Notes under the pieces: generated by a model
Told to the model about the DNA's origin: nothing
The model's database searches: none
What the model saw: the letters and a program-made list of their open reading frames with translations, nothing else
NCBI GenBank assembly: GCA_000091205.1
Contig: AP006499.2
Length of the DNA: 64,000 bases
DNA from: Cyanidioschyzon merolae
Taxonomy: Eukaryota
Reading direction: 5' to 3' (one strand)
Shown here: one piece after another, positions 2,085-59,500 of the stretch
Layout: every line of letters starts with the position of its first letter
Position numbering within the stretch: the stretch's first letter is position 1
Position numbers and translations under genes: made by a program

Positions 2085-3954
2085 GTTTGGAGTACGAACC
2101 CGTCGTTGCTGGCCACTGATGCAGCCGATGAGCGCAAGTCGCCGAGACTATCCACGGTGTCCAGTAATGTGCGTGTTTATACATTTTTTTCTTGATCGCC
2201 TTTCGAGGCAGCGCATACGACGCGCTCGCCCCGTTCATGCCAGCGGTGACGCACGCTACGCTGGAAGCGATCGCTGCGATGACTACATTCCAAGTCCGAG
2301 ACCCTTTTCCACGCATACCGAAGAGACAGTAAACTTTAGCAGCGTATTGTGTGAGATGTGTCATGCAGCTGCCGAATGCCATTCCGTGAATGGCCTCAAA
2401 TGGCGGAGGATTTGTTATTCGAACGGAATCGATTGTTTCACGCGAGATGTTCGGTGAGCTTTCAGCACGGTTTTTGTGGATCGAGTTGCGAACGGCCGTT
2501 GCCAAGTATTATCGTCCGTGAATCCAGCGCAATGAATCGCTTCGTCAAAGCGTTGATTGAACCTGAAAGACCGAAACCCTGCAAGAATACCGTGTACGCA
2601 TATACTATAAATAGCGATAGAGGAAGAACGGAGGCTCGTACGTATGCATCAGATAAAGGTATCCGTTAGTTTACAAAAACCTATTTGATTGCGCCGCAGA
2701 TCTGCTTTACTCCGGTGATGGCACGAGTGCCAGCGGCGAACTGGTCAAAGCAGTTGCCCCGAACAGGCGGCCGAGAACTCTCCAACTGCGTATGAATCGA
2801 CAAGTCCCTAATGCTCCATTTCAGAACCTCGAGGCTGTATGCCTGGGAAACCTTCGAAAGAATCTCAGAGCTGGAACAGATGGCAACGTTTCTTGTTTAA
2901 TTGTTATCGGACACGACAAAGGCGGTCACCAGAAGCGTACAACTCGGAGTTGGTTCATCCCCGGTGCAGTGTATAGCAGGAGATCGACATCACGATGCAA
3001 CGCTTTGTATAGATCGTGGATGAATTACGTGCTGGACATTAATTCCTTACTGAACATTGTAAGAGAGACCGCATTCCTCCCTCAGGTCAGTCATACAACA
3101 GTGCTCAGATGGTTGCGGAATAACGGAATAAACATGTATGTGCAGTCCACGCAAAGAACTGATGTTCCTTAAGTGTGCTTGCAGTCAATGGTAGAAAACG
3201 ACCAATAGATCACGCTCTAAAAAGCAAAAGTGACGCTGATAGCCGCCGCGGGCGTCTCTGCTTCTCAATAGCTTGAGCGTGTTGACCAAAAAACATGGGG
3301 ATGCAGTCGCCAAGGAGAGTGCTAGTTCATGCACTGCCGTCTTGTACCGAAATAGCAACGACAGAGTTCCTAGAACGTCGGGATCCGTACGAAGCACTGG
3401 AACCTCGAGTTGCTTTTTTAAGGTGATAAGACTTCCTCTTGACGAAACGGTCAGAGCGTGTACGGGTATTCGCGGAGCAGGGAGCACGATGTATGCACTA
3501 CCGAACTTTAAGAGAACGAGGACACTATCTGTTCTAGCTGGAGTGGATTCTTTTCGCGGCCTCAGTTCCGCTAGTAGACAAGGTTCATACAATAGCTCCA
3601 AACACTGTATCGAATCATTGAAGACTTTACCCTGACGTCTGGCGACGTCCGCCCATTGGACAAAGTGGCATTTTCCAATTTCCCTAGCGGTCGGGCTTTC
3701 GCCGATTTTATCGGGGCAGAGCTGATTTTCATTCCTACGTGCATTCCGTGGTTCAGCCACATCGAAGGAGTGTTTTTACCCTGAAACGTCATGATAGTTT
3801 CAAGTGCGAATCCCTGAAGCGTTCAGCACATGGTGACACACCGGGTACATTTTATCTGTCTTGCGCAAATCCTTCTCCCTCTGAGAAAGTCCTCACCAAG
3901 GGGCATCAAGAATTGCGTTCATCTAAAGAAATAAACCATCCAACGGATGAGCTG

Positions 3955-4345
3955 AAGTGTGCACTTCAGAAGGTCGAGATGCAACGAAGGCAGCGGAGCG
4001 CTCCGGCGATCGAAAAGCACAGAGCGCCGCTAGAGCGCTAAATGCCACAGAGGGCGCGATTTCAAGGACTTCTGCTACTGATGCGTTCCATCGTCGTCAA
4101 TAAACGCGTGGAGTTCGTGAACCGAGACTCCAACGCTGCCATCCATATCAGAAGATATGCAGTGCTGAGGACGAGACCCAAGGAACTGACGAGAGCCAAC
4201 TTTATGGGGCAACCTCTCAGTGTCAAAGTGTACAAGGGCAAGCTGAACCCCCACAGCAGGGGGCCGGTCAAAAACGCCTGGGAAGCGTCTGCACGTGGGT
4301 ATTCATTTACTCTGTATGGCCGCGAAACGTTTCCGCTTCCTTGAC
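3955..4345 (+). mobile_element. TnpB/Fanzor-like transposon relic, locus A (3'-terminal fragment)
   Basis: Translation 'VEFVNRDSNAAIHIRRYAVLRTRPKELTRANFMGQPL' is a degenerate RuvC-III motif. Nucleotide homology to loci B and C runs from ~3955 ('gtgtgcacttcagaaggtcgag') through the shared non-coding tail 'ggccggtcaaaaacgcctgggaagcgtctgcacgtggg'. It sits in an AT-richer gene-free stretch (2100-4500). Confidence 0.45.
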
Positions 4346-9394: not shown

Positions 9395-9880
9395 CCGGTT
9401 TACAGCAACTCGGAATGAGCGTACAAGGCGTGTGCACCTCGTTTCGCTACGATACTTATAGATGAGTTCCGAACATCGTATACACACCACGAACTGGGGT
9501 GTACACTTCAGAAGGTCGAGCTAGGAAAGTGCCAGCGGAGCCCTGAGGATATAAAAAGCACGGACCGCTGACAGAAGCGCAACTGGAAAGGAGAGCGAAA
9601 GTTCGTGGACTACTTGCATTAGTGAGTACAACCAGTGACGGCAAGAAACGTATGGAGTTTGTGAATCGTGACTTTAACGCCGCTATCAATATCAGGAGGT
9701 GTGCGGTGCTGGAGACGAGACCTCCAGAGTTGACACGAGAGAACTTTATTGGACAACCTCTCAAGTCGAATTATATGAGACAAGATTGGAAGAAGTAGTA
9801 GGTGGCCAGTCGAGAAAAACTGGGAGGCGTCTGCACGTCAGTGGGAGACGTTTCGTATAGGGCGCTGGTCGCCACTACTG
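9395..9880 (+). mobile_element. TnpB/Fanzor-like transposon relic, locus B (3'-terminal ~480 bp)
   Basis: 'MEFVNRDFNAAINIRRCAVLETRPPELTRENFIGQPL' is the RuvC-III D-x-NAAINI-R signature. It is ~80% nt identical to the minus strand of 46418..46900 (locus C), including a near-identical ~60-nt block ('cgatacttatagatgagttccgaacatcgtatacacaccacgaactggggtgtacacttcaga') and the post-stop tail 'taggtggccagtcgagaaaaactgggaggcgtctgcacgtcagtgggagacgtttcgtatagggcgc..gccactac'. Confidence 0.55.
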
Positions 9881-9904
9881 CACACGCCCGTAGTCTTTCT
9901 CACA

Positions 9905-10795
9905 ATGCTACGGTGGTGGTGGTGGTGCAGAAGATTCAAAGCAAACTTGCCAGTTTCTACGCTGCGTGGTGAGCAGCTTTTCGGCTCCGCGCAGCACCGA
10001 AACCTAACCCAGTCGAGTTATGTCGGCGAGAGCGTCTACTTGTGGCAGAACAAGGCTCGCGTTCACGGGCTTGTGTCGCCACGCGAAATAGCTTGCAGTC
10101 CGCGCTTGAGAAGCATATTAAGCGGGGCACTGAGCCGACGTGGTTACTCGACTCCTGCTTCGGAGAGTGTCGACGTTCAGCGGCGTCTAGATGAGCAGCT
10201 CCGCGCCAAGGCTGCTATTGCGCTGGACCCGCAGGGCCTTGCGACAGTTTTGGCCGACTCGACCCGAATCGAAGAAGCTAACGCCACAGTGCAGCCCGAT
10301 TCTACCGCGAACGAAACGCAGGCACAGCAGCGACGACGTCGACGACGTCTGTATCCCGACGGTTCCGTGAACGCTACTGGACGACGGAAGACTGCCGTTG
10401 CAGTCGCGCGTCTCTTCCCGATAGAGTCGCCCGGAGGTCCGCAGTCGACCGCAGTCGATCATGAGACGCTCGTGGAACCCCGCTTTCGCGTCAATCGTCA
10501 GGATATCGCCGATTACTTCCTTCGTGTTGATCATCGTTTGGAGATCATGCGCCCGCTGATGCTCACCGGTATGGAGAACCGTTTCCATGTTCATGCGTTT
10601 GCACGCGGCGGGGGCATCACCGGCCAAGCCGAGGCTCTTCGACTTGCCATTGCGCGAGCTTTGGAGGATTACGACCCTGAGCTACGGCGTATACTCAAGC
10701 CGGCAGGTCTTCTCACGCGAGACCCTCGCATGGTTGAGCGGAAAAAGTACGGTAGGCACAAGGCCAGAAGAGCCTTTCAATGGGTCAAACGATAA
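9905..10795 (+). CDS. MRPS9: Mitochondrial ribosomal protein uS9m (S9/S16 family) with long N-terminal extension
   Basis: ATG at 9905. C-terminal 'GGGITGQAEALRLAIARAL...KPAGLLTRDPRMVERKKYGRHKARRAFQWVKR' is the conserved uS9 C-terminus. The long N-terminal extension is consistent with an organellar presequence. Confidence 0.8.
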   Translation: MLRWWWWCRRFKANLPVSTLRGEQLFGSAQHRNLTQSSYVGESVYLWQNKARVHGLVSPREIACSPRLRSILSGALSRRGYSTPASESVDVQRRLDEQLRAKAAIALDPQGLATVLADSTRIEEANATVQPDSTANETQAQQRRRRRRLYPDGSVNATGRRKTAVAVARLFPIESPGGPQSTAVDHETLVEPRFRVNRQDIADYFLRVDHRLEIMRPLMLTGMENRFHVHAFARGGGITGQAEALRLAIARALEDYDPELRRILKPAGLLTRDPRMVERKKYGRHKARRAFQWVKR

Positions 10796-29105: not shown

Positions 29106-29489
29106 GAGCCGCCACAACCTCCCGATTCTTTCTCTTCGATAGAAAGGTCATTCAGACCAGGAATCAGTAACGATGCGATGGATATCGCATATGCGTGATC
29201 AGAGCCGCCACAACCTCCCGATTCTTTCTCTTCGATAGAAAGGTCATTCAGACCAGGAATCAGTAACGATGCGATGGATATCGCATATGCGTGATCAGAG
29301 CCGCCACAACCTCCCGATTCTTTCTCTTCGATAGAAAGGTCATTCAGACCAGGAATCAGTAACGATGCGATGGATATCGCATATGCGTGATCAGAGCCGC
29401 CACAACCTCCCGATTCTTTCTCTTCGATAGAAAGGTCATTCAGACCAGGAATCAGTAACGATGCGATGGATATCGCATATGCGTGATCC
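29106..29489. repeat. 96-bp minisatellite, 4 copies, containing the perfect palindrome CGCATATGCG
   Basis: The unit 'gagccgccacaacctcccgattctttctcttcgatagaaaggtcattcagaccaggaatcagtaacgatgcgatggatatcgcatatgcgtgatca' sits at 29106, 29202, 29298 and 29394. It ends ~15 bp before the first ATG of the Ctf18-like ORF. Confidence 0.9.
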
Positions 29490-29503
29490 GCGTTGCAATA
29501 CGT

Positions 29504-31894
29504 ATGCGAGCGGCAGCTCCCGAGGCAGTGCGCTGCGAATCGCAAGCCGCGCGCTGCCCTGCAGCGATGCGCGCGAAAAATCGCCTCCAGGAACGGCGCG
29601 CGCCGCGGCGTCGATCGCGCATCGCATTGGGTGCTGCTTGCGGCACGAGACGGTGCTTTCGGCTGCTGCAAGTGTCGTACGTACCTCATATGGATGTGAG
29701 CGGGAACGGGTTATTGATGCCTCGTAACCTGCAAGTTCGTCGTAGCGACGGTAGGGTGTTGTCTGTACGTATCCGCGAGGCATCATTGGGTGAAGAAGCG
29801 AACCTGCACTTCGGTAAGCTAGAGGCTGCAGTCGCTTGCCCGGTGGCAGGTGTTCATGAGGCGTCCAGCTGGACACGTGAGCCAGTATGCAGAACAAATC
29901 GGCAGTCGAGCAACAATGTCGACCACGAGGTGTCACAATCTGGGCTGAGCCTGGCTGATAAAGCTGCTACAGTCAACGGGATGCTCTGGTCAGACGCGCA
30001 TGCTCCCAAAGCGTATACCGAGTTGCTCGGCGATGATCGAATGCACCGGGAGTTGTTGCGCTGGCTGGTCAGCTGGTCGCAGTATCGGGACGTACGCAGC
30101 ACCTCGGGAGCATCCTTTCGGAACGGGACCGGTGCTTGTCGTCGGTTCACCGCGCCGTTGACACCCTTAGCGGTGTTGGCCGGTCCGCCCGCATCCTGCA
30201 AAACGGCGTGTGTGCGTGTTCTCGCTGAGCGGGCTGGTCTGGAAATGTGGGAGCCCCATATGCTGTTTAGAGACGGGTTGAACTGTGCAGAAAATCGATT
30301 TGCAGAGGTACTCGGGAGTGCTTCGCTACGAACAGGGCGACCAAGGCTGGTAGTTGTCGACGAGGGCGTTTTACCCGCAGAAGCCTTTGCCTCTCTGAAA
30401 CGAAGCGCCGGGAACGCTTCCGCCAACACCATCCACTGGTCGGATGTTCTTGTTCGCGTAGCGCTCACGTTGAAAAGCGTACCTGTTCTCTTCGTTCTCG
30501 ACGATGCTCACTGCCGTGAGGCCCGCATCCTCCGTGCGCAGGGAGCTGTCATTTTCACTTGCAGCCGCCCCGGTTTGCAGCCGCTCAAGAGACGTCTAGA
30601 GCAGGTTACGCGTCACTGTGGCTTGAAATTCGCCGAATCCGCCTTTCTTGAGCATCTTGCACTGGCACTTAACTGCGATATTCGAGCATGCCTGAACCAA
30701 CTCCAGCTTATTGGTGCCTGTCAATGGTCTGATGGCCTGTGGTCCACCATTGGCCTGCGTGATGCACCGGGGCCTCTGCGAGAGCAATGCTCGCAAATAT
30801 TCCGGGTGAGCGCGCGTCCAGCGTCCTATATGGTTCAGACGGGAGCCGGTGGCGTTCGTAACCGAGCGACCGGAACTGCGTCCGACGATTCTGAACGGGA
30901 TATTCCGCACCGACCAGCGTTCGGGGCATCTCAGAGCCCAGATCTCTGGAAACGACAGCATTTTCTCAGCGGTGAAATTCGCGATTATCTCGACATGTGT
31001 TTCGAGAACTATCTGGCGGTGGTGCCCTTCGATCCGCTGATGCGTCGCTGCAGCGCTGCAGTCGACTGGCACAGTTGTATCGATTCGATGATCCACAACG
31101 AGCTGGTGGACTCGATGGTGCTGGAAACGCTCGGCCTTGCTGCCCTGCAATCGTACCGTTACCATTGCGGGCGATCGACTGCACCCGTACCACACTCGCT
31201 CAAACTGGCCCGTTTCGGGTGCCTCGACGCCAACTCCCCGATGCATACGCGAAACCGCGACATCATAGAGCGATATCGACAGGCGCTTATCGAAGATTCA
31301 AGCAACGCTTCTGTACGGCAAGCATATGCGCTATCTCTGCGGCGCGAGGGCGTTCTCGTTTTCATACCGTTGCTTGTTGTCACGATGCAAGCGATCGTGG
31401 AAGCGACAGTCGCGGAAAAAGGCGCACGGCGCGCGGAGCTGCTCCGGCACCTAGGAAAGCAACTGTCGAGCTACGCGCTACGTTGGGCGGCGGATGACGA
31501 TTCGCAGGCCAACATTGCACCAGAAGCGCCATCAGGTGCTCGCCGGTGGAATGCTCTTCCGCTTGAACCAGCGATCGCTGACCTATGCATCATGCAAAGC
31601 GCTTCGTATCCGGAATGCAAACGGGAAGGCGTGCGAGCGCTTCAACGACAGTTCGGCGTGCTACTCAGGAACTGCGCTGGGCAACGGGTGCGGTCCGCTC
31701 GGAACGTCGCACTGCGCGGAAACGCACTCCACCACCACGCTGCGCATCCTCTGAGTTTACCGGTGAAACGCGACGCTAGGATATCGGAGCTTCGATCGCA
31801 TTCAGATGGCATCCAGTGCATCGTCCGTTACCAGTATCGCGAAGGGCACACGAACGCGGTCTTGCGTCCGTGTCTGATCGAGGATTTGCTATAA
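29504..31894 (+). CDS. CTF18: Ctf18/Chl12-like RFC-family AAA+ clamp-loader subunit
   Basis: 'LWSDAHAPKAYTELLGDDRMHRELLRWLVSW' parallels the Ctf18/RFC1 'LWVDKY(A/K)P..F.EL..D......L.WL..W' box. The P-loop 'LAGPPASCKTACVRVLAE' follows. The start is uncertain: in-frame ATGs at 29504, 29567 and 29690, and the first ~60 codons are very GC-rich and may be 5' UTR. Confidence 0.65.
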   Translation: MRAAAPEAVRCESQAARCPAAMRAKNRLQERRAPRRRSRIALGAACGTRRCFRLLQVSYVPHMDVSGNGLLMPRNLQVRRSDGRVLSVRIREASLGEEANLHFGKLEAAVACPVAGVHEASSWTREPVCRTNRQSSNNVDHEVSQSGLSLADKAATVNGMLWSDAHAPKAYTELLGDDRMHRELLRWLVSWSQYRDVRSTSGASFRNGTGACRRFTAPLTPLAVLAGPPASCKTACVRVLAERAGLEMWEPHMLFRDGLNCAENRFAEVLGSASLRTGRPRLVVVDEGVLPAEAFASLKRSAGNASANTIHWSDVLVRVALTLKSVPVLFVLDDAHCREARILRAQGAVIFTCSRPGLQPLKRRLEQVTRHCGLKFAESAFLEHLALALNCDIRACLNQLQLIGACQWSDGLWSTIGLRDAPGPLREQCSQIFRVSARPASYMVQTGAGGVRNRATGTASDDSERDIPHRPAFGASQSPDLWKRQHFLSGEIRDYLDMCFENYLAVVPFDPLMRRCSAAVDWHSCIDSMIHNELVDSMVLETLGLAALQSYRYHCGRSTAPVPHSLKLARFGCLDANSPMHTRNRDIIERYRQALIEDSSNASVRQAYALSLRREGVLVFIPLLVVTMQAIVEATVAEKGARRAELLRHLGKQLSSYALRWAADDDSQANIAPEAPSGARRWNALPLEPAIADLCIMQSASYPECKREGVRALQRQFGVLLRNCAGQRVRSARNVALRGNALHHHAAHPLSLPVKRDARISELRSHSDGIQCIVRYQYREGHTNAVLRPCLIEDLL

Positions 31895-34651: not shown

Positions 34652-34900
34652 GACGAGCAAGCGCTCCAGGCGCTAACGAGTAATCCGTCATTTCGTGCGC
34701 GTTCATGCCTCAAACCAGCGTTACCGATCTTCAGTCCCAGTGTACATTTGCTTTTGCAAACTCGCAGTTACGACGAGCAAGCGCTCCAGGCGCTAACGAG
34801 TAATCCGTCATTTCGTGCGCGTTCATGCCTCAAACCAGCGTTACCGATCTTCAGTCCCAGTGTACATTTGCTTTTGCAAACTCGCAGTTACGACGAGCCT
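34652..34900. repeat. 120-bp minisatellite, ~2.1 copies
   Basis: The unit 'gacgagcaagcgctccaggcgctaacgagtaatccgtcatttcgtgcgcgttcatgcctcaaaccagcgttaccgatcttcagtcccagtgtacatttgcttttgcaaactcgcagttac' sits at 34652 and 34772 with a partial third copy. Confidence 0.9.
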
Positions 34901-37569
34901 ACTGCGAAAGCGATGTGGCCTCTGGTTGCTCGCCCTGCATGGAAACGCACCTTCGATTTTCTCGCCATGTGACGTTCGATCAGCTCACCACACACCGTAT
35001 CGCGCATCCGACTACGCTCTATAGTCTTCTTCTGTACTGGTTTCAGCGCACGCCCGTACTCGTGGTTCGAGTACGTCGTACTGAATTCATGGATGGGAAT
35101 CGTGCAGCACCGAAACCTGCACGCGTTGGACGCGCTCGTCGAAATGGGCAGCGGCGCAGTATTTGCGAGTTTCAGCCTGTCCCGTGCCAAGGGCTGCTGC
35201 AAAATGACGCAAATTTTTGAGCTACTCCTTTTCCAGCTCGTTGAATAGCAAGGCGAATGTCCGCCTCGTGCCTCCCTACATCCGAAACATTACGAGGCTC
35301 TGGCGCGGTCGGATATACTCTTGCCAAAAGTCGTCGAAACGAACAATTTGGACGCTCATTTACTCACTGAATGCAGCGTACCATACCAATCGTTGCTTCT
35401 CGATACAGTGACGAGAGCGTCGAGATCGGTCCTGCCGTCGTCATGCCACTTGTTGATATGCTTCCTCACGACCACTGGGCCCGAACTTAGATAATATCGA
35501 GGCTCAGAAAAAAAGTCAGGCCGTGGTGCATCTTCAGTACCGCCCGTCGGTTGTTCCACAAAGGTTTGACCGAGGAATTCTGGGGGCATGTGAGCGCCTG
35601 GTAGCACCTCGCCCCGAACTCCGACAATCATCTCACTGACGTTGTACGTCAAGGCAAGTGGGGCCGAACAAGACCTTCCCGAAAAAGAAGCTGCAGAGTC
35701 CTTCATGGCTTCCCGCATCTCACAGTTTTGTAAGATTCTTCCCGTAGATGCGTTTTCGTACGGAGCTCTTGCCAATGATTTCACGCAGATCCTTTCACAC
35801 AGGCCGTTTTGCGTTCACGTACTTTCTCGTCCTCTTTCTGAGCGGATCTTTCTCTTCTTTCTTCTGTGGTTTCTTCACTGTCTCGTTTGCATGATGGAAG
35901 GGCACGGGTGCCGTCGCTTAGCTCTATGTCCGTTTCTCCCTTGGGTCCTAGACGCACTGGATGGATGTTGCGACGGATCTTGGCTTTCTCTATCTTTGTA
36001 TCCACTATACTTCGAGCATCTTTTCGCCAACAACCCCGATGCAAGCACGTCTGCGAACCGAAATGCGCCTTTCCATTCTCTTCTGCTATCGAGCACATAC
36101 GCAACGCCGTTGCTCACGGCTAGTGAGGCTAATGAACGGCTTTCCAGAGAAAAATTCGTCTACGAACGGTGTCACGGATGCGAATGAATCGTCTATGGAT
36201 GCGAAAGCTTACAAACGGCGTTTGACAGCATAGAAGCTGCTTCCGATTTGATACAACCAAGGAGAATAGGCTGCCACAAAGTGCAGATTAACGCCATCAC
36301 CGGCTGTGCGCTCTCTGGCCAGTTTTCGGGATGCAAAGCGACGTAGTCTACGAGCCGGACAGAAGACCACCGGAAGAAGAACCCGCAATGCGCTCCGATG
36401 AAGGAAGAGGCGTCAAACGATCCCGTCTGTTTGGGGATGATTCGGTGAGCAAACGACAGCATCGCCGCTCGGGCTGATGTCGCTTTCATTCCCGCTTGTC
36501 TTTTCTTTACGAAGAGCGGTGTGCCGCTACTCTAGGACCCCAACACAGGTCTACCATTTCTCCGGAATGAAGTCAGGTCGACTAAAACGAACATCCGTGC
36601 CACGTGTCGTCAGCGTTCGTGTTCCAGTACGAATTCGCTGGAGTGCGCTTCGTCAGCGTGCGATGCGCTCCCGAAGAAGCGCGCGTCGTTCTTCGCCTAT
36701 CTGCATCGCTTCACCACTGTTCGTTATCAAGGGTATGGAAACGTTGCATGCATGCTGTGGGTTTTTGGTAGTATTTCATAGAGAACGGATGCAGTGGCAT
36801 TGCCTGGCGAGGAAACTGTTGTATATATTGATTCTGATGAGTTCGAGTTCGATTGCTTGACGCTGAGCATATCGCCTAAGCGAACGTTCCTTCATCAACT
36901 TGCTGAAAGTTCAGTAGCTGATTCGTAAGAGGATGACCTGTTTCCGCAATCAAGCAGCAACAGCATAAAATCTTTCCACATTCTCACTCCATTCCGAAGG
37001 ATACAGTTATTTTGTTGCATACCTGCGAAGAAATAAACCAGGACAAAAAGTATATTCTGGTTGAGGTATTCTGGTACCACCGATTATGAGCGTAACGGTA
37101 GCGGCAGCGCGTCCGTGGGCATCGCCGCTGTCGCTCTTCGAACCGACGCCCTTTGTGGTTCGGCACTGCCGTTCTGTCTCCGTGCAGCGACCGCACCGGC
37201 GCTACAGGCGCTATTGCTGCCGGTTTCGGCAGGCTCGGCACACGATAGGGCGTATGAAACGACCAGAATATCCGAGATGAAGTATAGGTCATGTAACCTG
37301 AGAGTAGGAGGTTGATGGCTACCTCACCGCACACTGAAAGAAAAACACACACAAAGAAAATAAGAAACGAAAAATGCGCATAATCGGAGAACGCTGGCCT
37401 ATGGAAACGTTTTGTCCATGAAAAGAAAATGTGCCGCTGTCGCTGCGATCGGGTTGAAGGGCAGCGCGCCGGCGGCGGCGGCGGCAGCGCCAGCGACCCT
37501 AGACACTAGTCATAACCTCGCCGCTGCTGACATCATTCTATTGCCGCTGCGGCCTTTCAGAGCTTTTTG

Positions 37570-45300: not shown

Positions 45301-46356
45301 AGCGCATTCCTCTTGGAGACGCTGCTCGCGATCCCGCAGAAGCTGTAACTGCTTTTGCAACTGCAAGCTCTCCTCGGATGCTTTTCTGTACTCAGCATCA
45401 ACTTGACTGTACTCAGCAGTGATGCGAGTAAGCAGTCGCTCCAGATCTTGGGTTGTTTCCGTGAGTTCTTTGCCGAGTTCGCGCCATAAACGATCACGTT
45501 CCTCAGTCCGGATTCGGATTTCGTCACGCAGCGCCTGCAACTGCCGGCGCCGTTCGACCTCCTTTGCACGCGCTTCCTCAAGCTCTGTGACCGCTCGTAT
45601 TTTCTCACTCAGTTCCGTTTCGAGGGTCCCCAGCGAATTCGACCATTCGAGGCATTGGGCTTGCATGCTTCGACAGTTTCGTTGCTTTTGCTTCAGGTTT
45701 TCGAGGCGATCCCGCCAACGCTCTAGTTCCGAATGCAGAATCTTGAGTTCGGCGAGCTTCTGCTGCGCACACTTCTGAATCGCGATGAGGGCTTTTGCGT
45801 AACCGCGTGCCTCGAAAATATCGTCGAATTTTTCCTTGACTTTCTTCGGATCTTGCAACGGCCATAGGGACTCTTCTTGATGAACGAAAATCACGTTCTC
45901 TAGAACCGCCTGGCGCACACCAAGAAACGCTGGAGCCATCGCATTAATGTCATTGCATCGGTTTGAGGTTTTGATGTGCTGTCCGTCCTTGTCCCGAATG
46001 CTGAGGCTTGTCTCCACGGTGCTGAAACTCTGTTTCCCAGCAGTTGTGAGCCGAAGCTGGAGCTGGCGGTTCACGGTAATCTGTCGACCAAGCGCGTCTT
46101 CAAATAGCAGGCGAATTTTGGCCTTCGTTTCCTTGCTTTCACGCAAACGTGGATCGTGCACAAAAGCGGCGCCTTTGTCGACGAGCGGCGGCAACTCGCC
46201 AGTCGTTGCCAAGCGCAGGCACTCCACTATGGTAGTCTTTCCGGTGCCGTTCGCCCCCAGTATGACGGTTATCGGCGCCTGGAAGCGTAGGCGTTGCTCT
46301 TCATCCGGACCGAAACTCCGTACGCCTGAGAAGCCTAGTTTGATCAGACGTGACAT
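42388..46356 (-). CDS. RAD50: DNA double-strand break repair protein Rad50
   Basis: N-terminal 'MSRLIKLGFSGVRSFG...ITVILGANGTGKTTIVECL' (Walker A). The zinc hook 'CPLCDRAF' sits in the middle of long coiled coils. C-terminal signature 'SGGQKVLACLLIRLALAENF...LALDEPTTNLD'. ATG at 46356 (the listing begins at a GTG two codons upstream). Confidence 0.9.
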   Translation of the reverse strand: MSRLIKLGFSGVRSFGPDEEQRLRFQAPITVILGANGTGKTTIVECLRLATTGELPPLVDKGAAFVHDPRLRESKETKAKIRLLFEDALGRQITVNRQLQLRLTTAGKQSFSTVETSLSIRDKDGQHIKTSNRCNDINAMAPAFLGVRQAVLENVIFVHQEESLWPLQDPKKVKEKFDDIFEARGYAKALIAIQKCAQQKLAELKILHSELERWRDRLENLKQKQRNCRSMQAQCLEWSNSLGTLETELSEKIRAVTELEEARAKEVERRRQLQALRDEIRIRTEERDRLWRELGKELTETTQDLERLLTRITAEYSQVDAEYRKASEESLQLQKQLQLLRDREQRLQEECAAYSCQQAAIERQRASCAELLREIRKSHSIDGTDIGEGAIERSAKDLIHILERSRNDCEREMEHFKRLWEDALQREQKLKLELESDQRQAQQIRNEIATLEEACAETAARLQSLPMNVEIVAMKSALLVQFQAEKQQVDEELSNQTDMDRMSTIRKRLEQIFEVRTKNLASRRNDVTHTATRGDTNASAIAAAFQKFREEEEASIQRLLEQRRLPSCSVSEAQDRLASAERNLSAVRNRIMGTELEMRLRRAICDKESERLLSMRSRLREIDASVQPGTVDAECLKSQISALKRRHLELESTALERDGQANWLEEMRKRVHEQKTCPLCDRAFSGMAEAANVESALARVRNTLTQAADSDSLEYVQDALNRAEHQWRLLEERAAITLQEQRSISRIRSAESEIQRLEDARRSERTDQQVAEHELADARELLWYARRLAHLRQEMAPSGPSSASGIAASSPVVAALEVDTREAPHQPTSAGDALAREETSLRGELDTLLGRRQELLVRAQELHDLIQTTEKELTAERAKQHDRDQLEACLAEKRKQRSEKQASLCALDQKVEEALLQAAPPASAALLARLEAVRSRHRAIHTDLIRLENRLQVYIQESRRFEGDAHKLAHKQLETCREQIIQTLAEEAQAVQVVAQWAGQRQNADSYLRQVRDNLRYRQLQEMLVELQQKDVELASTLPMTDEHDPHVSALEAAKAEADTLREKVHHLRGQRDLLAEQLRALTVELDADVFAQAEQQFQALRLQCDVIELVCRDLRNYHRALDLAIMRYHDLKMRSINRVLRELWQSTYLGSDIEEIEIRSDFVADSLPMGRRTYHYRVVMRQGDTWLDMRGRCSAGQKVLACLLIRLALAENFGNACGVLALDEPTTNLDESHVKALAASLSLLIQQRAQQRNFQLILITHEERFLDYLHIREYADSYIYVTRNRQGLSQIQHHSLNETTGRREASELPFAYPGPLVVTAR

Positions 46357-46417
46357 AAACACACGAACAGGCGACCTTTCTCGCGCCTAAACGACAAACG
46401 TTGCTGCGGTCGACAGC

Positions 46418-48710
46418 ATCGTAGTGGCGGCGAACGCGCCCTATCCAAGACGTCTCCAACTGATGTGCAGACGCGTCCCAGTCTTTTCGGACCGGCCACC
46501 TACTAATGCATTCGACTTCTTCTCGTATATATCCATCTTGACAGATTGTCCCACAAAATGCTCTCGTGTCAATTCGGGAGGTCTCGTCTCCAGCACCGCA
46601 CATCTTATGTTGATTGCGGCATTAAAACGTCGGTTCACGAACTCCATATGTTTCTTGCCGTTGCTTTTAGAACTCACTCATGCACGTGGCCCTTCAACTT
46701 TCATCCTCCTTTCCATTTGCTCTTCCGTCAGCGCTCCGTACTTTTCTATATCTTCAGGGCTCAGCTGACACTTTTCCATCTCGACTCTCTGAAGTGTGCA
46801 CCCCGTTCATGGTGTGTATACGATGTTCGAAACTCATCTATCGGTATCGTAACGATACGCCTGGCGCATTCCTTGTACGTTTTTGTCGACGGAGCTGGCG
46901 TAGTCCCTTTTTTGGACGCCCTGCTGCATATGCTTCTACTAGCCTTTGACTCTCGTCCTCCGTGAAAGCGCTCAACTGATTGAAAAAGTTGGCGAATGCA
47001 CGCTGCTTCCTACAGTACATGTTCATACGCTGCCGAGCCGGCCGGGGCGTGGTACACTCTCCTCACAGCACATCCCAATGAGCAACGCGAACTTGTATGA
47101 ATTTCAGAAAAGCCTCAAAGTTCGCGCCGCGGCTCGTCACCTCGCTCAAAGCTTCCAGGTGCTCTTTCACTCCTGCATGCCATGTCTCACTTTTCTTCCT
47201 CGCATTCATGATTCCCGATTCTCGATAGAATCCCGCTCTCGAGAATCTCAAAAGACGCACGTCTTTCTGGCGCAAGTTACCGTCGATGCTCTCTTCCATA
47301 CGCTTCGGTGCTGCGATGGTTCTGATTATCGTGTGTTCCCATGGTCCGAGCCAGTGACAAAATCGTTACCCTGAACTTTCTGCGTCACTGGATCCGCCTT
47401 TTTGTTTTCTTCATGCTTCGTCATGGGCGATATCGAAGACGTAACTGGACGTTTCGCCTTCAAGCGCCGATAGTGTACGCACATGGCTACTCCATCGGTT
47501 TCGATTATCCCAGTGAATACCTTTTGCTTGCTTACTTTGAGTCGTTTGAAATCGAAGGTATTCTTCCAGTAGGTCTCCCGGTTTTCACCGGGGAACTCCG
47601 TGTTGCTTTCATCGAACTCCGGACGGATCTCCTTCGTGATGCTGTAGAGGACTCTGGAGTCGATGGTCACAAAATTTGACTCGATGTTGCACAACGGAAC
47701 GCAATTGAAGCGCTTCCCCATTAGGAAAGCCTTACGTCTCTCCCACTCTTCATTGTTTTTCCTTACTCAGCTTCATCTCCGCGTTGCGTTCTAGTTCTCG
47801 GTTCAAAAACATGAAATATCGCAAGACGAGGCGATTGTATCTTTCCTTATCTTTTTTTCAACTCTGATATCTTTTCCGCTGGACTCGCCAGCCCCAGTAC
47901 CGCACGGTGCTCTTGTATAACCGCACGGATTACGGAAGCTTCATTTGTGCCCTCGTTTGACGCCTTCTTGTCGACGAATTCGACCTCATCTTCATGCTTG
48001 GGATCCTTCGTGATGCCATTGATAATCGCCCACATTCCTTTGCGAGAGATGCCAGGGTACAGCGCAAACACGGCGCGTATCATGAAATGTTCGAGGTTCA
48101 CTGTGAAATGGTTCTTCAGGTTCGTGATGTACTTCATCGCTCCGTAGGTGTAAATATCCGCTTCACCCTTGTATCGAGTACCGTTGAAGCGGTATTCGGC
48201 GTAATTTTCGTGAACGCCATGCACTCGCTCATTTCTCCTCGACGGTTCCCCTGTACCAAGCATCAGGTGACGAATAAAGGTCTTGTCGAAAAACTCGTAC
48301 GGAACCTCGTCTGTTTCCATGTGCGTCACGTCGCGATACATCTCCTTTACGAAATGCAGCAGTCCTGACGATGCCTTTACAATACTCATGGGGTACGAGT
48401 CGACACGGTTTCTGATGGCGTCTCGCAACTTTTGCCTGCAGAGATCCTTGATATGCCCAAAAAGACAGGCTTTCACCACCATCTCGTCGTTGTGTCGTCT
48501 TTCGTGCGGGTTCTGACTTCGGGCTTCCCTGTTTTGCTTCTTCGTCTTGTCTTGTTCCTCTTTGCTCCGCCATGTTTTTCGTTGTCTCCGGCAGCCAGTG
48601 ACATTTAGCCTCCAGGTCCTCAACTTGCTTTTCCATAACTTTCTTGTATTTATTTTGGAAAGGAACGCACGTAGAACGCTTCTGCTACAAACGGCGAAAA
48701 TCACTTGAAT
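46418..48710 (-). pseudogene. Decayed Fanzor/TnpB-like (IS200/IS605-family RuvC nuclease) gene, locus C, the longest copy
   Basis: The minus-strand ORF fragments 47847..48704, 47326..47721, 47063..47299, 46838..47026 and 46441..46677 lie in frames 2,0,1,1,0 and are separated by stops or frameshifts. The final fragment reads '...KKHMEFVNRRFNAAINIRCAVLETRPPELTREHFVGQ' (RuvC-III). '[11 protein letters not shown]' is RuvC-I-like. 'IPIDEFRTSYTHHERG' is a Cys-to-His-decayed zinc-finger remnant. 'CTLQRVEMEKCQLSPEDI' is separated from the RuvC-III frame by a single TGA. The region is AT-richer than its flanks. Confidence 0.5.
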
Positions 48711-48921
48711 GAGCTTACTTGAGGGTTGGAAAACAATTCAGCTGAAAAACTATACTTTGCTATTACTTGAACGCAAATACAACTTTTACGGTAGAACAAC
48801 ACGCAAATATTCAGGATCGCGTTTCCCTTCAACGGCGAGATACTCCTCCTGTCTCATGCCTGCCAGATATCCCAGGTGTGCGTATCGACCACGCTATATA
48901 GAACAAATAACAGAGACTAAC

Positions 48922-49572
48922 GATGAACTAGCAACGATATAAATATTTATTCCCCCTAGATGAAACGTTAAAAACGGTAAAGGCTTCCCGTACTGTCGAA
49001 AGTTTACCTTACAGGCGGAGGGTCCCGCGAGCCGGGCGACTCTGCTGGGCTGGTGCCCGGTGTGCCTCTAAAGTGGCAGGTGCTGTGGCGAGACCTGAGC
49101 AACTCGTCCGAAACGCAGTTCAAGCTGGAATAAGGGGCATTTGGCCTGCGTTTCAGCGTCGCCCCGGTCGCAGTGGACTCCCAGCATATCGCTTCGCGCT
49201 GCCGCAGACAGTATGTCTGTCCGCGTAGCTTGCAGGCTCCCCGAATAATTATGTATTCCGACCTCGTGTCGAGTGCACCACGCCTCGAGTCAACGCCCGC
49301 AGCGGAACAGCAAAGCCGTACAGTCTCCGGGATATATCTGCTCTGGCGGTTTTGGCGCCACCGCGGGGGCCGCAAGGCAGGCACTCAGCACACGATAGCG
49401 TGTACAAAACGACCCGTATACTCGGGAGGAAGTAAAAGCAATGGAACTTGAGGGCAGGTGCTTCATGATGGACGCCTTTTCGATTACCACTATCCATCCC
49501 GCAATCTGGGATCCATGGTCGATGGAGACGAATTTTGTCATCGGAAAAAATCGATCGCCATCCCATCGGCCT
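48922..49572. repeat. 650-bp dispersed direct repeat, copy 1 (98.5% identical to copy 2)
   Basis: Aligns base-for-base with 50844..51505 (about 9 differences). It lies ~110 bp upstream of the Rab ATG (49782). Confidence 0.9.
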
Positions 49573-50384: not shown

Positions 50385-50843
50385 TCATCGCCGAGCTGAG
50401 CATCGCGCTGTGCACACTAGACATGATTCGGAAGCGATGGACCTGGATTTCGAGCCGAGTGGGGAGGCTCTGCAGCTGAATAGCACCAAGCTTGTAAAAT
50501 TCTCCTAACAACATACATATTTGCAGACATTAGGTAGTGCACAATTTGATGACCCGCACAACAGCGAGTTTGCGGTATGTCTCGAAAATCCAGTGGGCAT
50601 GTGCAGAGATACACATATGAGGTACAAGGCAAATTCCACAAGAATCCGACGATGCGTCTCAAGTGTACGGATTGTTTGTCCACGTCATCGGTGCATAAAG
50701 AAGCCGCTACACGGCACCGTGACGCAAAGACAGGTATCACACCGACGCTTTCAGAAAAGTACACACTTTGCGTAGCGCATTGCTGCGCGTCTTTCCAAGG
50801 TCCAGCGAAACCGAATCGAGCCTAGATCGAGGTGCACAGCAGG

Positions 50844-51505
50844 AGACTAACGATTAACTAGCAACGATACAAATATTTATTCCCCCTAGATTAAACGTTA
50901 AAAACGGTAAAGGCTTCCCGTACTGTCGAAAGTTTACCTTATAGGCGGAGGGTCCCGCGAGCCGGGCGACTCTGCTGGGCTGGTGCCCGGTGTGCCTCTA
51001 AAGTGGCAGGTGCTGTGGCGAGACCTGAGCAACTCGTCCGAAACGCAATTCAAGCTGGAATAAGGGGCATTTGGCCTGCGTCTCAGCGTCGCCCCGGTCG
51101 CAGTGGACTCCCAGCATATCGCTTCGCGCTGCCGCAGACAGTATGTCTGTCCGCGTAGCTTGCAGGCTCCCCGAATGATTATGTATTCCGACCTCGTGTC
51201 GAGTGCACCACGCCTCGAGTCAACGCCCGCAGCGGAACAGCAAAGCCGTACAGTCTCCGGGATATATCTGCTCTGGCGGTTTTGGCGCCACCGCGGGGGC
51301 CGCAAGGCAGGCACTCAGCACACGATAGCGTGTACAAAACGACCAGTATACTCGGGAGGAAGTAAAAGCAATGGAACTTGAGGGCAGGTGCTTCATGATG
51401 GACGCCTTTTCGATTACCACTATCCATCCCGCAATCTGGGATCCATGGTCGATGGAGACGAATTTTGTCATCGGAAAAATCGATCGCCATCCCATCGACG
51501 CGCTT
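50844..51505. repeat. 650-bp dispersed direct repeat, copy 2
   Basis: See copy 1. It lies ~118 bp upstream of the p23 ATG (51623). Confidence 0.9.
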
Positions 51506-56581: not shown

Positions 56582-59500
56582 ACTGCGGAGCCACAGTGCA
56601 CCAAGGAAAGTGTGGTTTTTGCAGGGGCTTTGCCAACGGGAGGCGAATTTTTCTACTGCCGGTCAAGGGTGCAGAAGAAGCACTCGGGAGATCCTGAAAG
56701 CATTCATCGAGGCTATAGCATAAAGAAAGTTGGACGAAGGAGGTGAAGTGTCTTTGTGCCCTCTGCAGCGTGACTTGTCGATGAGCAGCGGTCGACGCGT
56801 ACCGGCACGCTCGCTAGAGCGCTCTTGCAGAGCGACGTGAAAAACTTGCATTCATGAAGAAAACACCACGGGAACGTAGCGCTTAGGAATATATGCCTAA
56901 ATGCAGTTTTTGGTGCTCGTTCGTCCAGCTGTGACGGAACGCCGATGGAGTCGTAGAAAACGGGATTCGCCTGTCATAGACGTGTACCCAAGCTAGACTG
57001 AACTGGCAATGGGTCGTCTAACGCGCCTGTCAATACTGCAGTTTGGGTCTTTTTTCTACTGCCTTCAACACAATCCTCTGTGCGCTTTTTCTGTGGCTGA
57101 TCCGTGTTCCTCTATCCTATCTTGGGCTCTAAATACGCGGGTCTTTAGCTTTCCCCCAGCCCCAGTGGAAGCAGTCGTACGACGTTGAGGGAGCGTTCAA
57201 GCGCCGATTTCGGAGCTCCCAGCTCTTGTCCATGCATTTGATGCACAGGGCGAAGTTGCGGCCTATGATTCGCTTGCCATTTTCTACTTCACTGCATACA
57301 CCCTGACTGTGCACACCGCAGCAGTGACACTACTTTGGGCAGGTGTTCGCAAACTTGCACCAAATCCCTCGCCTCAAGCCCAACTCTGTGGTGCGTAAAC
57401 GCTCGCTTCACCTCTTTCTACATGCCCCTGACGAGTACGGAAGGCGCAACGCATTGCCTTCCTCCGTTTCCGCTCTCGGTGCCGGACCCTATTATCACGG
57501 GCTTCTTCTGGGCGATACCCGCGGCGAGTTCAGTGTCCACTGCATGTGCAAGCGCATGCTGTTCCATCCTACACGAGGATTTGTGGAACGGGATGTCGAT
57601 CTTGATGAATCGAGAACCGGTGACGAATTCCAGGCGGGGAAGCAGTCGAGAAATTTGGATCCGTCAATACGCATTTTTTTGCCAAGCGGTGACGCAATCT
57701 CTGCACCGGAAGCGATCGCTGCGATGACGTGAGTCCGAGTCCAGACCCTTTTCTGGACAAGCGGAAGGAACCGGAGCCTCCAACAGCATAGCTCTCGAGA
57801 AGTATCATGCTACTGTGGTATGTCGTTCGTCGCTAAACACAAAGATAGGAGGATTTGTTTTTTGTACGGATCCGATTACGAATTGAAGATAAATTTTATT
57901 TTCAGGACAATGTTACGAACAAGTCTTCAAAAGACGACGACGACGACGCCTTTTCTCTTCGTACATCGGGTGGTGCGAATTGCTGTGCCCACGAATCCCT
58001 ACGAAACATCAAGATCGAAGAAATGACGCAGACGTGATTTGATCATTCTACTCGTAAAGAACGGAGAGGAATGGATGCTTGGACGTGTGCATTGGATAAT
58101 GGTATCCGGCGTTTACGAATGCCTGGTCGAGGCCCGTACAAATCATCCTGAGTCCTGTGCCGAAACGAATTCCATCGGCTGGGCGTCGAAGAAGCCACTC
58201 CGAAAACACGACCGACATTCGTGTAACGACAGCCGGCTCCGTACGCCGTTATTCCCGCACATCGAATACTGGGGCTGCAAATCCAAAAAACAACTTTGGA
58301 AAACCTGGATAGACGGGAACAGTGTGAGCGGTTCAGTGCCCCAGTTCAATTATCACGCGGACGAGGACTGCTTCGTACCACCAATAGAAAACGCAGTATT
58401 GGGATGGAGCACTAGTATCCAGGTGTGCACCTATCATGATAGAAGCGTTTCCAGTCGGCACCATCGAGGATCCCTCACTTGCCTCACCTACCGATTATCC
58501 TGGAAAAAACGGCCTGCAAATGATGAATGTATCACGAGCACTGCATTCCAGGGTGGCATTTGTCTTGCAAACAAAACGAAATGTGCGCTTTATTTCCCCC
58601 ACATGTAACCCAGAAACACCTAAATGCCTCGACTGGATCGGTCGCGCTGGTGGCAGTGCACAAAGCGTCCAAGTGTGTCGTGCGGTCGCGAGTGCCACTG
58701 CGGAGTGACGGCCTCTGCATGTGCTGGAGTCACGATATGCATACAACCATGCCATGAAGTATGTGCCGATGTCAACGCACACTCTGTAAGGTCGAAATGC
58801 TCTTCGCACGAAGAAACAGGCGACAGCCTCTCCGGTGTCATATCCGGTAGAACGTGGCTGTCACGATGGATACCAGCGGCCGACTTTGATACACTCTTGC
58901 TGGGACTCTGGTGCGCGTGCTCACGGAACTCATGCGAGGGCAGCGGAATTTACAGCTGCATGTAAAGGATTGCGGGTTCTGATGCCGGGGGCTGTTGTCC
59001 CGATTCACTCTGTCAAACGCTTACCACGGAATGAACTGGTTCGATGTATGGTGCATTGAGTCTGCGCCATCCCTTGCATGTCCACGGGCATGGTTTGTCG
59101 TGAACGTATATCGCGTGAGCCCATAACCGTGGCGGGTATCGAGTCTCGCTCGTGTCTGAGTACAGCTGAAAAAATTCTTATCAGAAGGTTTGGAGAATGC
59201 CTGATAGGGAAATAAGACTCGCGTCTGCACATCAGGCGAATAAGCTGATTCGGTCTTCCTGTTGATACCGCAGTCAGCTAGCTGTCAAGGCACACAAAAA
59301 GATTCACGATATGCTCGTCTAGCGAAACGGTTTCACACGCATACCAGGCGAACTAGCTGGCTCGTTCTAGCTATCGAAGCTGCAGCGAACGAATCAGCGA
59401 TTCCCCGTAAGAAGGCTCATGGTATGCCAAGGTCGGTAAGAGGCCATACATTCGCCAACCAGGAGAGCCAGCTTGTTCGTTATTCCCGGCGACGCTGCAG

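Follow-up and report, generated by a model that had tools for sequence, protein, structure and literature searches.

A decayed Fanzor1 transposon gene between RAD50 and Rab in Cyanidioschyzon merolae

Introduction

What are the broken minus-strand reading frames that lie between the RAD50 and Rab GTPase genes of Cyanidioschyzon merolae, and could the protein they once encoded still work? In the window, meaning the whole 64,000-nucleotide stretch of DNA analysed here, a sequence-only reading had described positions 46418-48710 (locus C) as a decayed member of a resident Fanzor/TnpB-like transposon family. That interpretation was right: the locus is real, it is inactive here, and its family was already published in 2013.

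Bao and Jurka reported CMe-1A, a Fanzor1 element of C. merolae with about 150 copies, which show ~80% identity to a consensus of roughly 3 kb, have neither TIRs nor TSDs, and share their 5′ 635 bp with the element TE-N2_CMe (PMC3627910). The family of locus C matches this account and, by the published description, is probably CMe-1A.

Results

A broken gene in a divergent intergenic region

Locus C occupies a divergent intergenic region, with RAD50 on one side and the Rab GTPase gene on the other (Table 1). Five proteins of the window exactly match entries from chromosome 17 of C. merolae 10D (BAM82072-75 and BAM82086), and the accessions BAM82086, 82087 and 82088, corresponding to RAD50, Rab and p23, are consecutive. 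Since these numbers leave no gap, and no NCBI or EukProt protein is found among the homologues of the stitched locus C product, the locus is unannotated in strain 10D.

The run of mixed-frame minus-strand ORF fragments noticed earlier comprises six fragments: 47847-48704 (285 aa), 47326-47721 (131 aa), 47063-47299, 46838-47026, 46678-46779 and 46441-46677. Residues 3-752 of the best homologue (P0001) align by tblastn across 48566-46549 in six consecutive pieces (E 1e-98 to 7e-142), and the gene as a whole resolves into six collinear frame pieces, 48566-47853, 47857-47759, 47754-47347, 47404-46910, 46910-46788 and 46803-46441, ending with a TAG stop (46441-46443). The coding sequence is broken by five frameshifts and by stop codons at two in-frame positions (AHWDVL*GE and GPRA*VSS).

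Stitching the pieces together yields a product with 35 homologues (best E 5e-296), 30 of them at 52-75% identity and five at 24-32%; against family members over the whole length, identity is 61-76%. Because a phmmer search of the PDB with the stitched product returned only noise, a family profile was needed to establish a link to known structures. The sole PDB match of this profile is the Spizellomyces Fanzor SpuFz1 (8gkh), with an E of 1e-16 over WED, RuvC and TNB, and this similarity to an experimentally characterised Fanzor places the family in Fanzor1. The five frameshifts and two in-frame stops, combined with an Asp-to-Arg replacement in RuvC-III (below), mean that the locus C gene cannot work. 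We are highly confident that locus C is a dead copy of a CMe-1A-family Fanzor1 gene.

Table 1. Coordinates of locus C, its parts and the related copies and repeats in the window
Feature	Position	Strand	Basis or remark
Copy A, older 5′-truncated relic (VEFVNRDSNAAIHIRR)	3937..4344	+	blastn, tblastn (tblastn span 3937-4272)
Copy B, 5′-truncated, last ~110 codons and 3′ tail	9419..9927	+	blastn, tblastn (tblastn span 9419-9887)
Copy D, much more diverged Fanzor relic	34945..35511	-	tblastn, 28% identity with P0001 (E 1.4e-9)
Conserved non-coding 3′ tail of element	46384..46440	-	alignment of 61 element tails
Fanzor1 pseudogene (locus C)	46441..48566	-	tblastn with P0001 and P0007, three-frame translation, 755-aa stitched product
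RuvC-III position	46627..46629	-	Arg (NRRFNAAINI) where the family has Asp (NRDFNAAINI, invariant D725)
RuvC-II catalytic Glu codon (IDEFRTS)	46833..46835	-	kept; aligned to family-invariant E656 (VDEFRTS) and SpuFz1 DEYKTS
RuvC-I catalytic Asp codon (GSDHG)	47344..47346	-	kept; aligned to family-invariant D484 (GADPGNT)
5′ leader of core element	48567..48893	-	blastn against 38 other element heads, window against L001, junction alignment
656-bp dispersed repeat, abutting Fanzor core 5′ end	48913..49568	.	98.6% identical to 50843-51497
Second copy of 656-bp repeat, same orientation	50843..51497	.	126 nt upstream of p23 co-chaperone gene (51623)

The two ends of the element

Conservation of the 61 element tails continues for ~75-95 nt beyond the stop and then collapses. 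The tail of locus C contains a GGCG..CGCC hairpin and a GCCACTAC box that hardly varies among copies, and its terminal hairpin is decayed. Its blastn homology to copy B and to a related locus (L001) ends at 46421. The right end of the element falls within 46384-46421, and from there to the downstream RAD50 start codon (46354-46356) is about 30-65 nt. In well-preserved copies the terminal hairpin has stems of 12-18 bp and the terminus reads ...GGTG.

For 42 tails aligned with MAFFT, RNAalifold predicted no consensus pairs, as the 5′ arm contains indels that throw the two arms out of register; tail structure was assessed instead by single-sequence folds and by a test of native versus chimeric arms. 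Arms of the terminal hairpin paired better with their own partner than with partners taken from other copies (-23.85 versus -21.66 kcal/mol), a result reached in 0 of 2000 permutations (Wilcoxon p 0.052), and the fold z-score is only -1.8. A long-range stem candidate, AGTAGTGG/CCACTACT, is conserved, lacks compensatory changes and is not claimed here, and the Rfam search produced two noise matches only. The tail may be an omega RNA scaffold, a transposition signal or both.

At the other end, the homology common to most copies stops at about 48881-48893. The 656-bp repeat comes next, leaving 214 nt to the downstream Rab start codon (49782), and related loci hold ~20 more copies at 65-75% identity, some at Fanzor 5′ ends and some solitary. 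By the published description, this repeat is probably the TE-N2_CMe module. Most related metagenome loci are without it and bear a different 5′ extension, of which there are at least three kinds. The 5′ ends of the elements are heterogeneous. A search of the element ends for TIRs, which the sequence-only reading had proposed, detected none: neither the window nor 39 element heads contain a 5′ counterpart of GCCACTACTGTACAC, the box upstream of the hairpin.

Other copies of the family

The earlier count of four copies in the window holds, as A, B, C and D are all recovered by tblastn with P0001. Copy A lies about 190-230 nt upstream of a tousled-like kinase gene (4528), and the RuvC-II region of copy D reads IPIHEFSTTYSNHEYG. 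At the DNA level, the repeat within the window is restricted to the last ~460 bp of locus C, which are 79% identical to 9420-9878 and 66% identical to 3962-4294.

A further 71 family loci are found on Cyanidioschyzon-type metagenome contigs, and the family is carried on a multicopy mobile element. Eight interior 5′-truncated loci keep their 3′ end (L043, L044, L045, L057, L059, L061, L067 and L068), a small sample of which at least five are independent and to which copies A and B of the window are additional; every apparent 3′ truncation among the metagenome loci is a contig end. The relic at locus C is itself present in wild strains, at 99.1% identity. Look-ups with p23 and RAD50 returned only 99%-identical strains carrying the same relic, with contigs that break in the 656-bp repeat and no empty site, and neither RAD50 nor the 235-aa Rab ORF had an exact match in the contig index.

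Proximity of element ends to host genes

The host may now use the relic 3′ end and the 656-bp module as promoter, as 5′ leader or even as first codons, with RAD50, mtS9, Rab and p23 as the genes concerned. We advance this only tentatively and consider it somewhat unlikely. Such use would explain why 3′ ends are retained, as they are in all interior truncated copies, and the high identity of the relic in wild strains is consistent with it. The element right end is at most ~65 nt from the RAD50 start codon. In copy B, the sole usable start codon of mtS9 (mitochondrial ribosomal protein S9; 9905) falls inside the loop of the terminal hairpin, whose 3′ arm, GCTACGGTGGTGGTGG, supplies codons 2-8 (LRWWWWC). 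Of 41 non-redundant insertion sites, 33 have their nearest downstream ORF (at least 200 aa) on the same strand, with a median of 102 nt separating the right end from the ATG, and 12 of 16 sites have a divergent upstream neighbour; these counts derive from ORF-based gene calls and may still include some strain-level duplicates. However, the orientation bias is partly expected if insertions are simply tolerated in the larger intergenic regions, the divergent ones, which makes 50% the wrong null, and rolling-circle, one-ended transposition also produces 3′ retention (PMC3627910).

Host use of this kind would complement the pseudogene reading and exclude nothing in it.

Catalytic residues and zinc ribbon

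The active site of SpuFz1 is formed by D383, E541 and D606, with D383 acting as a metal ligand (PMC10432273), and our homologue alignment shows no variation at the catalytic D, E and D. In locus C, the RuvC-I-like block that had been recognized upstream ends the 131-aa fragment, and the profile alignment pairs its Asp with the IDPN motif of SpuFz1. RuvC-II, which had been overlooked, is found at about 46821-46841 in another frame; its IDEFRTS includes the [TS][TS] that follows the Glu.

The RuvC-III-like motif is in the last fragment, as proposed, where the sequence reads MSSKSNGKKHMEFVNRRFNAAINIR. Here the catalytic residue is lost: the RD of the RD-x-NAA-x-NI signature is present in the family and in copies A (NRDSNAAIHI) and B (NRDFNAAINI, intact and near consensus) but is absent from locus C. 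The substitution by Arg makes locus C a member by descent that is nonetheless catalytically dead. All three RuvC positions can be recovered and are collinear with those of intact homologues, so the resemblance that was first noticed is not a stray motif match.

Introns, programmed frameshifts or stop-codon readthrough could in principle keep such a gene alive. The largest fragment is an open frame of 285 aa, and a few introns do occur in C. merolae. Adjacent tblastn pieces, however, abut or overlap (47853/47857, 47759/47754, 46910/46910 and 46788/46803), leaving no intervening sequence for an intron, and the two in-frame stops fall within conserved blocks. As the RuvC-III Asp is also gone and the locus is unannotated in 10D, we reject a live gene as very improbable.

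The CxxC..CxxC zinc ribbon invoked previously does not hold for the Cyanidioschyzon subfamily. A C4 zinc finger between RuvC-II and RuvC-III is the Fanzor1 motif of Bao and Jurka (PMC3627910); in this subfamily the region is THHELGC...EKC, with LLALVST replacing the second Cys pair, and even the best-preserved members have HH...C...C only. Among the homologues, CNRC...CNSNEDIC is seen solely in a distant one (P0035). Since the whole subfamily is without the canonical C4 ribbon, nuclease activity is uncertain even for its intact members.

Predicted fold and the distinction from bacterial TnpB

The AlphaFold model of P0001 is of moderate confidence (pLDDT 67, pTM 0.56). Its top Foldseek matches are seven Fanzor structures (E 8e-14 to 3e-10, TM 0.43-0.67); weak Cas12 matches rank next, and Fanzor alone is found at E < 1e-9. 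The family is predicted from this model to have the Fanzor/TnpB fold, with WED, REC, split RuvC and TNB. Its relatives number 5812 among 1.84 billion representatives at E ≤ 1e-3. The Pfam check suggested for TnpB domains (OrfB_IS605 and TNB) was negative for the six fragments and the stitched product, even at E ≤ 10, and in homologues, including distant ones, PF07282 stays below threshold (12-23 bits against a cut-off of 26.3).

The D..E..RD-NAA-NI motif set is common to TnpB, and locus C might on that account be a bacterial IS200/IS605 TnpB brought in by recent horizontal transfer or by assembly contamination. Against this, the PDB profile match is to a eukaryotic Fanzor and to neither TnpB nor Cas12f, the fold matches Fanzor only, and Pfam OrfB_IS605 is not matched. 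Moreover, nuclear genes that match C. merolae exactly flank the copies, and further copies occur amid eukaryotic genes on many contigs of Cyanidioschyzon type. A bacterial origin of this kind is hardly credible and is rejected. Chance resemblance of the short NAA-x-NI motif, with which the silence of Pfam on the fragments would agree, is likewise rejected and has a negligible probability given collinear homology over ~700 residues with E down to 5e-296.

Discussion

Taken alone, locus C is of little weight, being one of ~150 decayed copies of a family catalogued in 2013 and left out of the genome annotation. It does mean that nearly all of the apparent promoter DNA separating RAD50 from Rab consists of transposon relic. 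Our additions to the published description are modest: a conserved 3′ non-coding tail with a long terminal hairpin, the keeping of 3′ ends in truncated copies, and an element 3′ end that usually precedes, by ~100 nt, the start codon of a host gene on the same strand. These features are testable clues to the movement of Fanzor1 elements and to their reuse by a minimal eukaryotic genome.

Like CMe-1A, the element comes from C. merolae, has a Fanzor1 ORF as its sole gene and is about 3 kb long (~3.15 kb from 46384/46421 to 49568). Copies in both cases are ~80% identical to one another, no TIRs are detected, and a 5′ module of ~635-656 bp also exists as a separate short repeat. Helitron2-type non-autonomous elements are similar in having 5′-truncated copies with intact 3′ ends, a 3′-terminal hairpin, no TIRs and a 5′ end common to a short, ~650-bp non-autonomous element. 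They differ in possessing an asymmetric TIR/5′ hairpin, whereas the CMe-type family lacks a 5′ counterpart of the box upstream of its hairpin. The RuvC D-E-D core is shared with IS200/IS605 TnpB, as is a gene 3′ end that overlaps a conserved, structured element end; unlike those elements, the locus C family lacks both a Pfam OrfB_IS605 match and a TnpA gene, its N-terminal half is long and of Fanzor type, and its setting is a eukaryotic nucleus.

By homology, the intact ancestor would have been a TnpB-derived nuclease of ~750 aa with WED/REC/RuvC architecture. Following the mechanism described for Fanzor (PMC10432273), it would have bound an omega RNA transcribed from the element 3′ end, whose 3′ flank would act as the guide, and would have cut matching double-stranded DNA beside a short target-adjacent motif; such guided cutting may have helped the element to persist or spread. 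We infer both RNA-guided cleavage by intact family members and the mode of transposition.

A broader scenario is speculative, and we think it doubtful. CMe-1A-type Fanzor elements might be Helitron-like, one-ended (3′-anchored) rolling-circle passengers whose structured 3′ terminus (candidate omega RNA scaffold plus terminal hairpin) has repeatedly been co-opted in this very compact genome as host promoter, 5′ leader and even initiation codon, with the RAD50 leader and the mtS9 presequence MLRWWWWC as possible examples. Wild C. merolae strains might also retain, at a locus syntenic with 10D chromosome 18 between BAM82337 and BAM82338, a Fanzor1 that is almost intact, adapted to heat and degenerate in its zinc ribbon. 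The alga lives at about 42-50 °C and at low pH, and a family member repaired to the consensus could provide a compact, heat-tolerant genome editor, although its activity is uncertain given the missing zinc ribbon.

The closest characterised structure, SpuFz1 (8gkh; Saito et al. 2023), agrees with the family in profile (E 1e-16), fold (TM 0.53-0.67) and aligned catalytic D/E/D, yet is only ~14% identical. SpuFz1 has a CxxC...CxxxxC zinc ribbon, in place of which the Cyanidioschyzon subfamily carries a 20-residue insert. The subfamily also differs in bearing variable tandem 25-aa repeats (KHEE..DP.TQ.V.DND) just before RuvC-I, an array that is modelled as disordered in P0001.

Locus C is a Fanzor1 pseudogene

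Locus C lies between the RAD50 and Rab genes on chromosome 17 of Cyanidioschyzon merolae 10D, an intron-poor thermoacidophilic red alga. The accessions of RAD50, Rab and p23 are consecutive; therefore, no annotated feature lies between RAD50 and Rab. The sequence-only reading described a run of minus-strand ORF fragments in mixed frames here, and inspection of the frames bore this out. With tblastn, residues 3–752 of P0001, the best homologue of locus C, are covered over 48566–46549 by six consecutive pieces in differing frames. Neighboring pieces abut or overlap, and thus the breaks are indels rather than introns. We stitched the six pieces into a product of 755 aa. An additional frame contains TIPIDEFRTSYTHHE, and two in-frame stops fall within conserved blocks (AHWDVL*GE and GPRA*VSS).

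The stitched product has 35 homologues in a large protein collection. Thirty of them, every one from JGI metagenomes, share 52–75% identity with it (E = 1e-133 to 5e-296), and the remaining five share 24–32%. The set contains no NCBI or EukProt protein, so 10D is without an annotated Fanzor. No TnpB-type domain was found by Pfam, a check the reading had proposed, in either the locus C pieces or the stitched product, and phmmer of the latter against PDB sequences returned noise only. A profile from an alignment of ten homologues, searched against all PDB sequences, gave a single match: SpuFz1, the characterized Fanzor of Spizellomyces punctatus (8gkh and six related entries; E = 1e-16), aligned across the WED, RuvC and TNB regions. 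Three catalytic positions are invariant in the ten homologues, D484 (GADPGNT), E656 (VDEFRTS) and D725 (NRDFNAAINI), and align to the SpuFz1 motifs IDPN, DEYKTS and NRD. SpuFz1 D383, E541 and D606 are the ligands of two magnesium ions (Saito et al., PMC10432273).

The AlphaFold model of P0001, based on the same alignment, has moderate confidence scores (pLDDT 67, pTM 0.56). Foldseek against the PDB ranks seven Fanzor structures at the top: SpuFz (E = 8e-14, TM 0.53–0.67), followed by those of Parasitella and Guillardia. The matches after these are to Cas12 and are weak. Homologues, profile match and fold matches together support the earlier view of a decayed member of a Fanzor/TnpB-like transposon family. 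The gene belongs to a large family: of 1.84 billion representatives searched with the profile, 5812 are relatives at E ≤ 1e-3. Judging from these similarities, the ancestor of the locus C family was presumably an omega-RNA-guided DNA endonuclease.

Both RuvC-I and RuvC-II could be recovered in locus C. Their respective catalytic residues, the Asp of GSDHG and the Glu of IDEFRTS, are retained and align to the invariant family positions. The RuvC-III Asp, present in copies A and B, is replaced by Arg. Locus C therefore descends from a Fanzor1 gene and is now a pseudogene, a decayed, unannotated and nonfunctional copy.

The CxxC..CxxC zinc ribbon named in the sequence-only reading as part of the RuvC-III hallmark does not hold for the Cyanidioschyzon subfamily, in which the second Cys pair is missing. 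The canonical C4 ribbon is absent throughout, the region reading THHELGC...EKC with LLALVST replacing the second pair and carrying a 20-residue insert; CNRC...CNSNEDIC is present only in a distant homologue, P0035. Directly before RuvC-I, a 25-aa unit (KHEE..DP.TQ.V.DND) occurs in one to four tandem copies in the subfamily and is disordered in the model. P0001 has four units (KHEE..K.A.P.TQ.V.DND..V; residues ~375–471, pLDDT ~24) and locus C has one.

Features of the window
Feature	Position	Strand	Accession	Remark
Run of ORF fragments, locus C	46418-48710	-
Last ORF fragment, locus C	46441-46677	-		MSSKSNGKKHMEFVNRRFNAAINIR
131-aa ORF fragment, locus C	47326-47721	-		C-terminal end is the RuvC-I-like block
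25-aa repeat unit, locus C	47347-47440	-
Locus C right end	46384-46421
Copy A	3937-4272	+
Copy B	9419-9887	+
Copy B terminal hairpin	9871-9928	+
Copy D	34945-35511	-		28% identity to P0001; much older relic
Copy A 3′ end to tousled-like kinase	4294-4528			~190-230 nt
Copy B 3′ end to mitochondrial S9	9878-9905			ATG inside terminal hairpin loop
Copy C 3′ end to RAD50	46356-46421			<= ~65 nt
656-bp repeat, copy 1	48913-49568			directly beyond locus C core homology
656-bp repeat, copy 2	50843-51497
Tandem repeat	27104-27563			unit 93 nt
Tandem repeat	29104-29583			unit 96 nt
Tandem repeat	16598-16819			unit 74 nt
Tandem repeat	34652-34891			unit 120 nt
61-nt sequence	2264-2324
61-nt sequence	22439-22499
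61-nt sequence	57709-57769
Triose-phosphate isomerase			BAM82072	exact protein match of window ORF
Tousled-like kinase			BAM82073	exact protein match of window ORF
CMQ174C			BAM82074	exact protein match of window ORF
Mitochondrial ribosomal protein S9	9905 (ATG)		BAM82075	exact protein match of window ORF
RAD50			BAM82086	exact protein match of window ORF
Rab GTPase		+	BAM82087
p23 co-chaperone		+	BAM82088

Relation to the CMe-1A family and other copies

The locus C family is already known, having been published in 2013 as CMe-1A, the one Fanzor1 family listed for C. merolae (Bao and Jurka 2013, PMC3627910). In that work, CMe-1A numbers ~150 copies, ~80% identical to a consensus of ~3 kb. CMe-1A and TE-N2_CMe, with which it shares its 5′ 635 bp, are both without TIRs and of unknown classification. 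Locus C fits CMe-1A by the published description rather than by alignment to the Repbase consensus. A literature search for Fanzor and C. merolae found nothing beyond this paper and two passing mentions. The new details are modest and unproven. They comprise the degenerate zinc ribbon, a nearly intact copy from wild strains, the 3′ hairpin, the retention of 3′ ends and the placement of these ends close to start codons of host genes.

All four copies claimed for the window (A–D) were recovered by tblastn of P0001. At the DNA level, the repeat is limited to the last ~460 bp of locus C (79% with copy B, 66% with copy A). Most other copies are homologous to locus C over the stretch from 46421 to ~48893, and with the adjoining 656-bp repeat the composite element, from its right end to 49568, measures ~3.15 kb. 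The two window copies of this repeat are 98.6% identical, whereas ~20 copies dispersed in related contigs, some at Fanzor 5′ ends and others solitary, show 65–75% identity; the difference suggests a recent local duplication or gene conversion of the pair. The pair forms direct repeats flanking the Rab gene. Metagenome contigs from close strains end inside the repeat, and two metagenome loci (L053, L056) consist of two head-to-head Fanzor copies with one 656-bp module between them.

A scan of metagenome contigs yielded 71 loci, and some of the adjoining genes cluster with 10D proteins at the 90% level. The majority are as broken as locus C. The best copy, P0001 (L001:10001-12259), comes from a wild strain and is nearly intact; it has 752 open codons and all three catalytic residues (D, E, D), with no ATG upstream of the conserved N terminus and a premature stop after RuvC-III, ~35 codons short of the usual family end. 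Its flanking genes share 90%-identity clusters with BAM82336, 82337, 82338 and 82340 of 10D chromosome 18, and it is syntenic with the interval there between BAM82337 and BAM82338. The locus C relic upstream of RAD50 is also present in wild strains, at 99.1% identity. On several contigs (L058, L070, L025, L057, L059), a second element 3′ tail lies a few kb from the first.

A conserved 3′ tail

In 61 aligned element tails, conservation extends to ~75–95 nt beyond the stop codon and then collapses. First in the tail is a small GGCG..CGCC hairpin, next comes a box that is almost invariant (GCCACTAC), and last is a terminal hairpin, the 3′ arm of which runs to the element terminus (...GGTG). The terminal stem is 12–18 bp in well-preserved copies; it reads ACCGTTGGCGTCGTTCGA CTT TCGAACGGCGTTGATGGT in L044 and CACTGCTGCC...GGCAGTGGTG in L001, and is decayed in locus C. 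Native arms fold better than arms swapped between copies (mean −23.85 vs −21.66 kcal/mol), with the native mean reached by 0 of 2000 permutations and a paired Wilcoxon p of 0.052, which lends modest support to covariation of the arms. RNAalifold on the MAFFT tail alignment gave no structure, because indels put the arms out of register. A conserved long-range pairing had zero compensatory changes, the last 260 nt have a fold z-score of −1.8, and Rfam returned no match. In TnpB and Fanzor systems, the transposon end is transcribed into the guide RNA, and the 3′ flank provides the guide portion (PMC10432273). By analogy, the tail is the candidate scaffold of an omega RNA; a role as a transposition signal is equally possible.

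Element class

Every interior truncated copy lacks its 5′ part and keeps its 3′ end, as seen in eight listed loci (L043, L044, L045, L057, L059, L061, L067, L068), of which at least five are independent, and in window copies A and B. Apparent 3′ truncations are all at contig ends. This 3′ retention, combined with the terminal hairpin, the lack of TIRs and a 5′ end common to a short non-autonomous element, recalls the Fanzor1-carrying Helitron2 elements of Chlamydomonas (Bao and Jurka 2013, PMC3627910), and on this likeness we hypothesize that the C. merolae Fanzor elements are Helitron2-like. A search for a 5′ counterpart of the box that precedes the terminal hairpin found none. At least four unrelated classes of element 5′ end were distinguished, all meeting the core at a single point.

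Position relative to host genes

Each of copies A, B and C has its 3′ end directed at the nearby start codon of a host gene on the same strand, and all three copies are in divergent intergenic regions. Non-redundant insertion sites were surveyed with ORF-based gene calls and possibly retain strain duplicates. In 33 of 41 sites, the nearest downstream ORF of at least 200 aa has the same orientation as the element (median gap 102 nt), and in 12 of 16 the upstream neighbor is divergent. For the same-strand bias, the binomial p of 1e-4 is overstated, since elements that prefer larger divergent intergenic regions, or are tolerated there, would by that alone be expected in more than 50% of cases. 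One 656-bp repeat precedes Rab by 214 nt, and the other precedes p23 by 126 nt. The relics may be putative present-day promoters or leaders of the adjacent host genes.

The start codon of the S9 precursor in the copy B hairpin loop is its sole usable one, and codons 2–8 (LRWWWWC) of its MLRWWWWC N terminus are the hairpin 3′ arm plus the element terminus (GCTACGGTGGTGGTGGTGGTGC). From this correspondence, the N terminus of the S9 presequence appears to be transposon-derived.

Among other repeats in the window, the 120-nt tandem pair adjoins copy D on its 3′ side, at the expected site of the RuvC-III region of that copy. The three 61-nt sequences (pairwise identity 62–72%) begin with a conserved GAAGCGATCGCTGCG.
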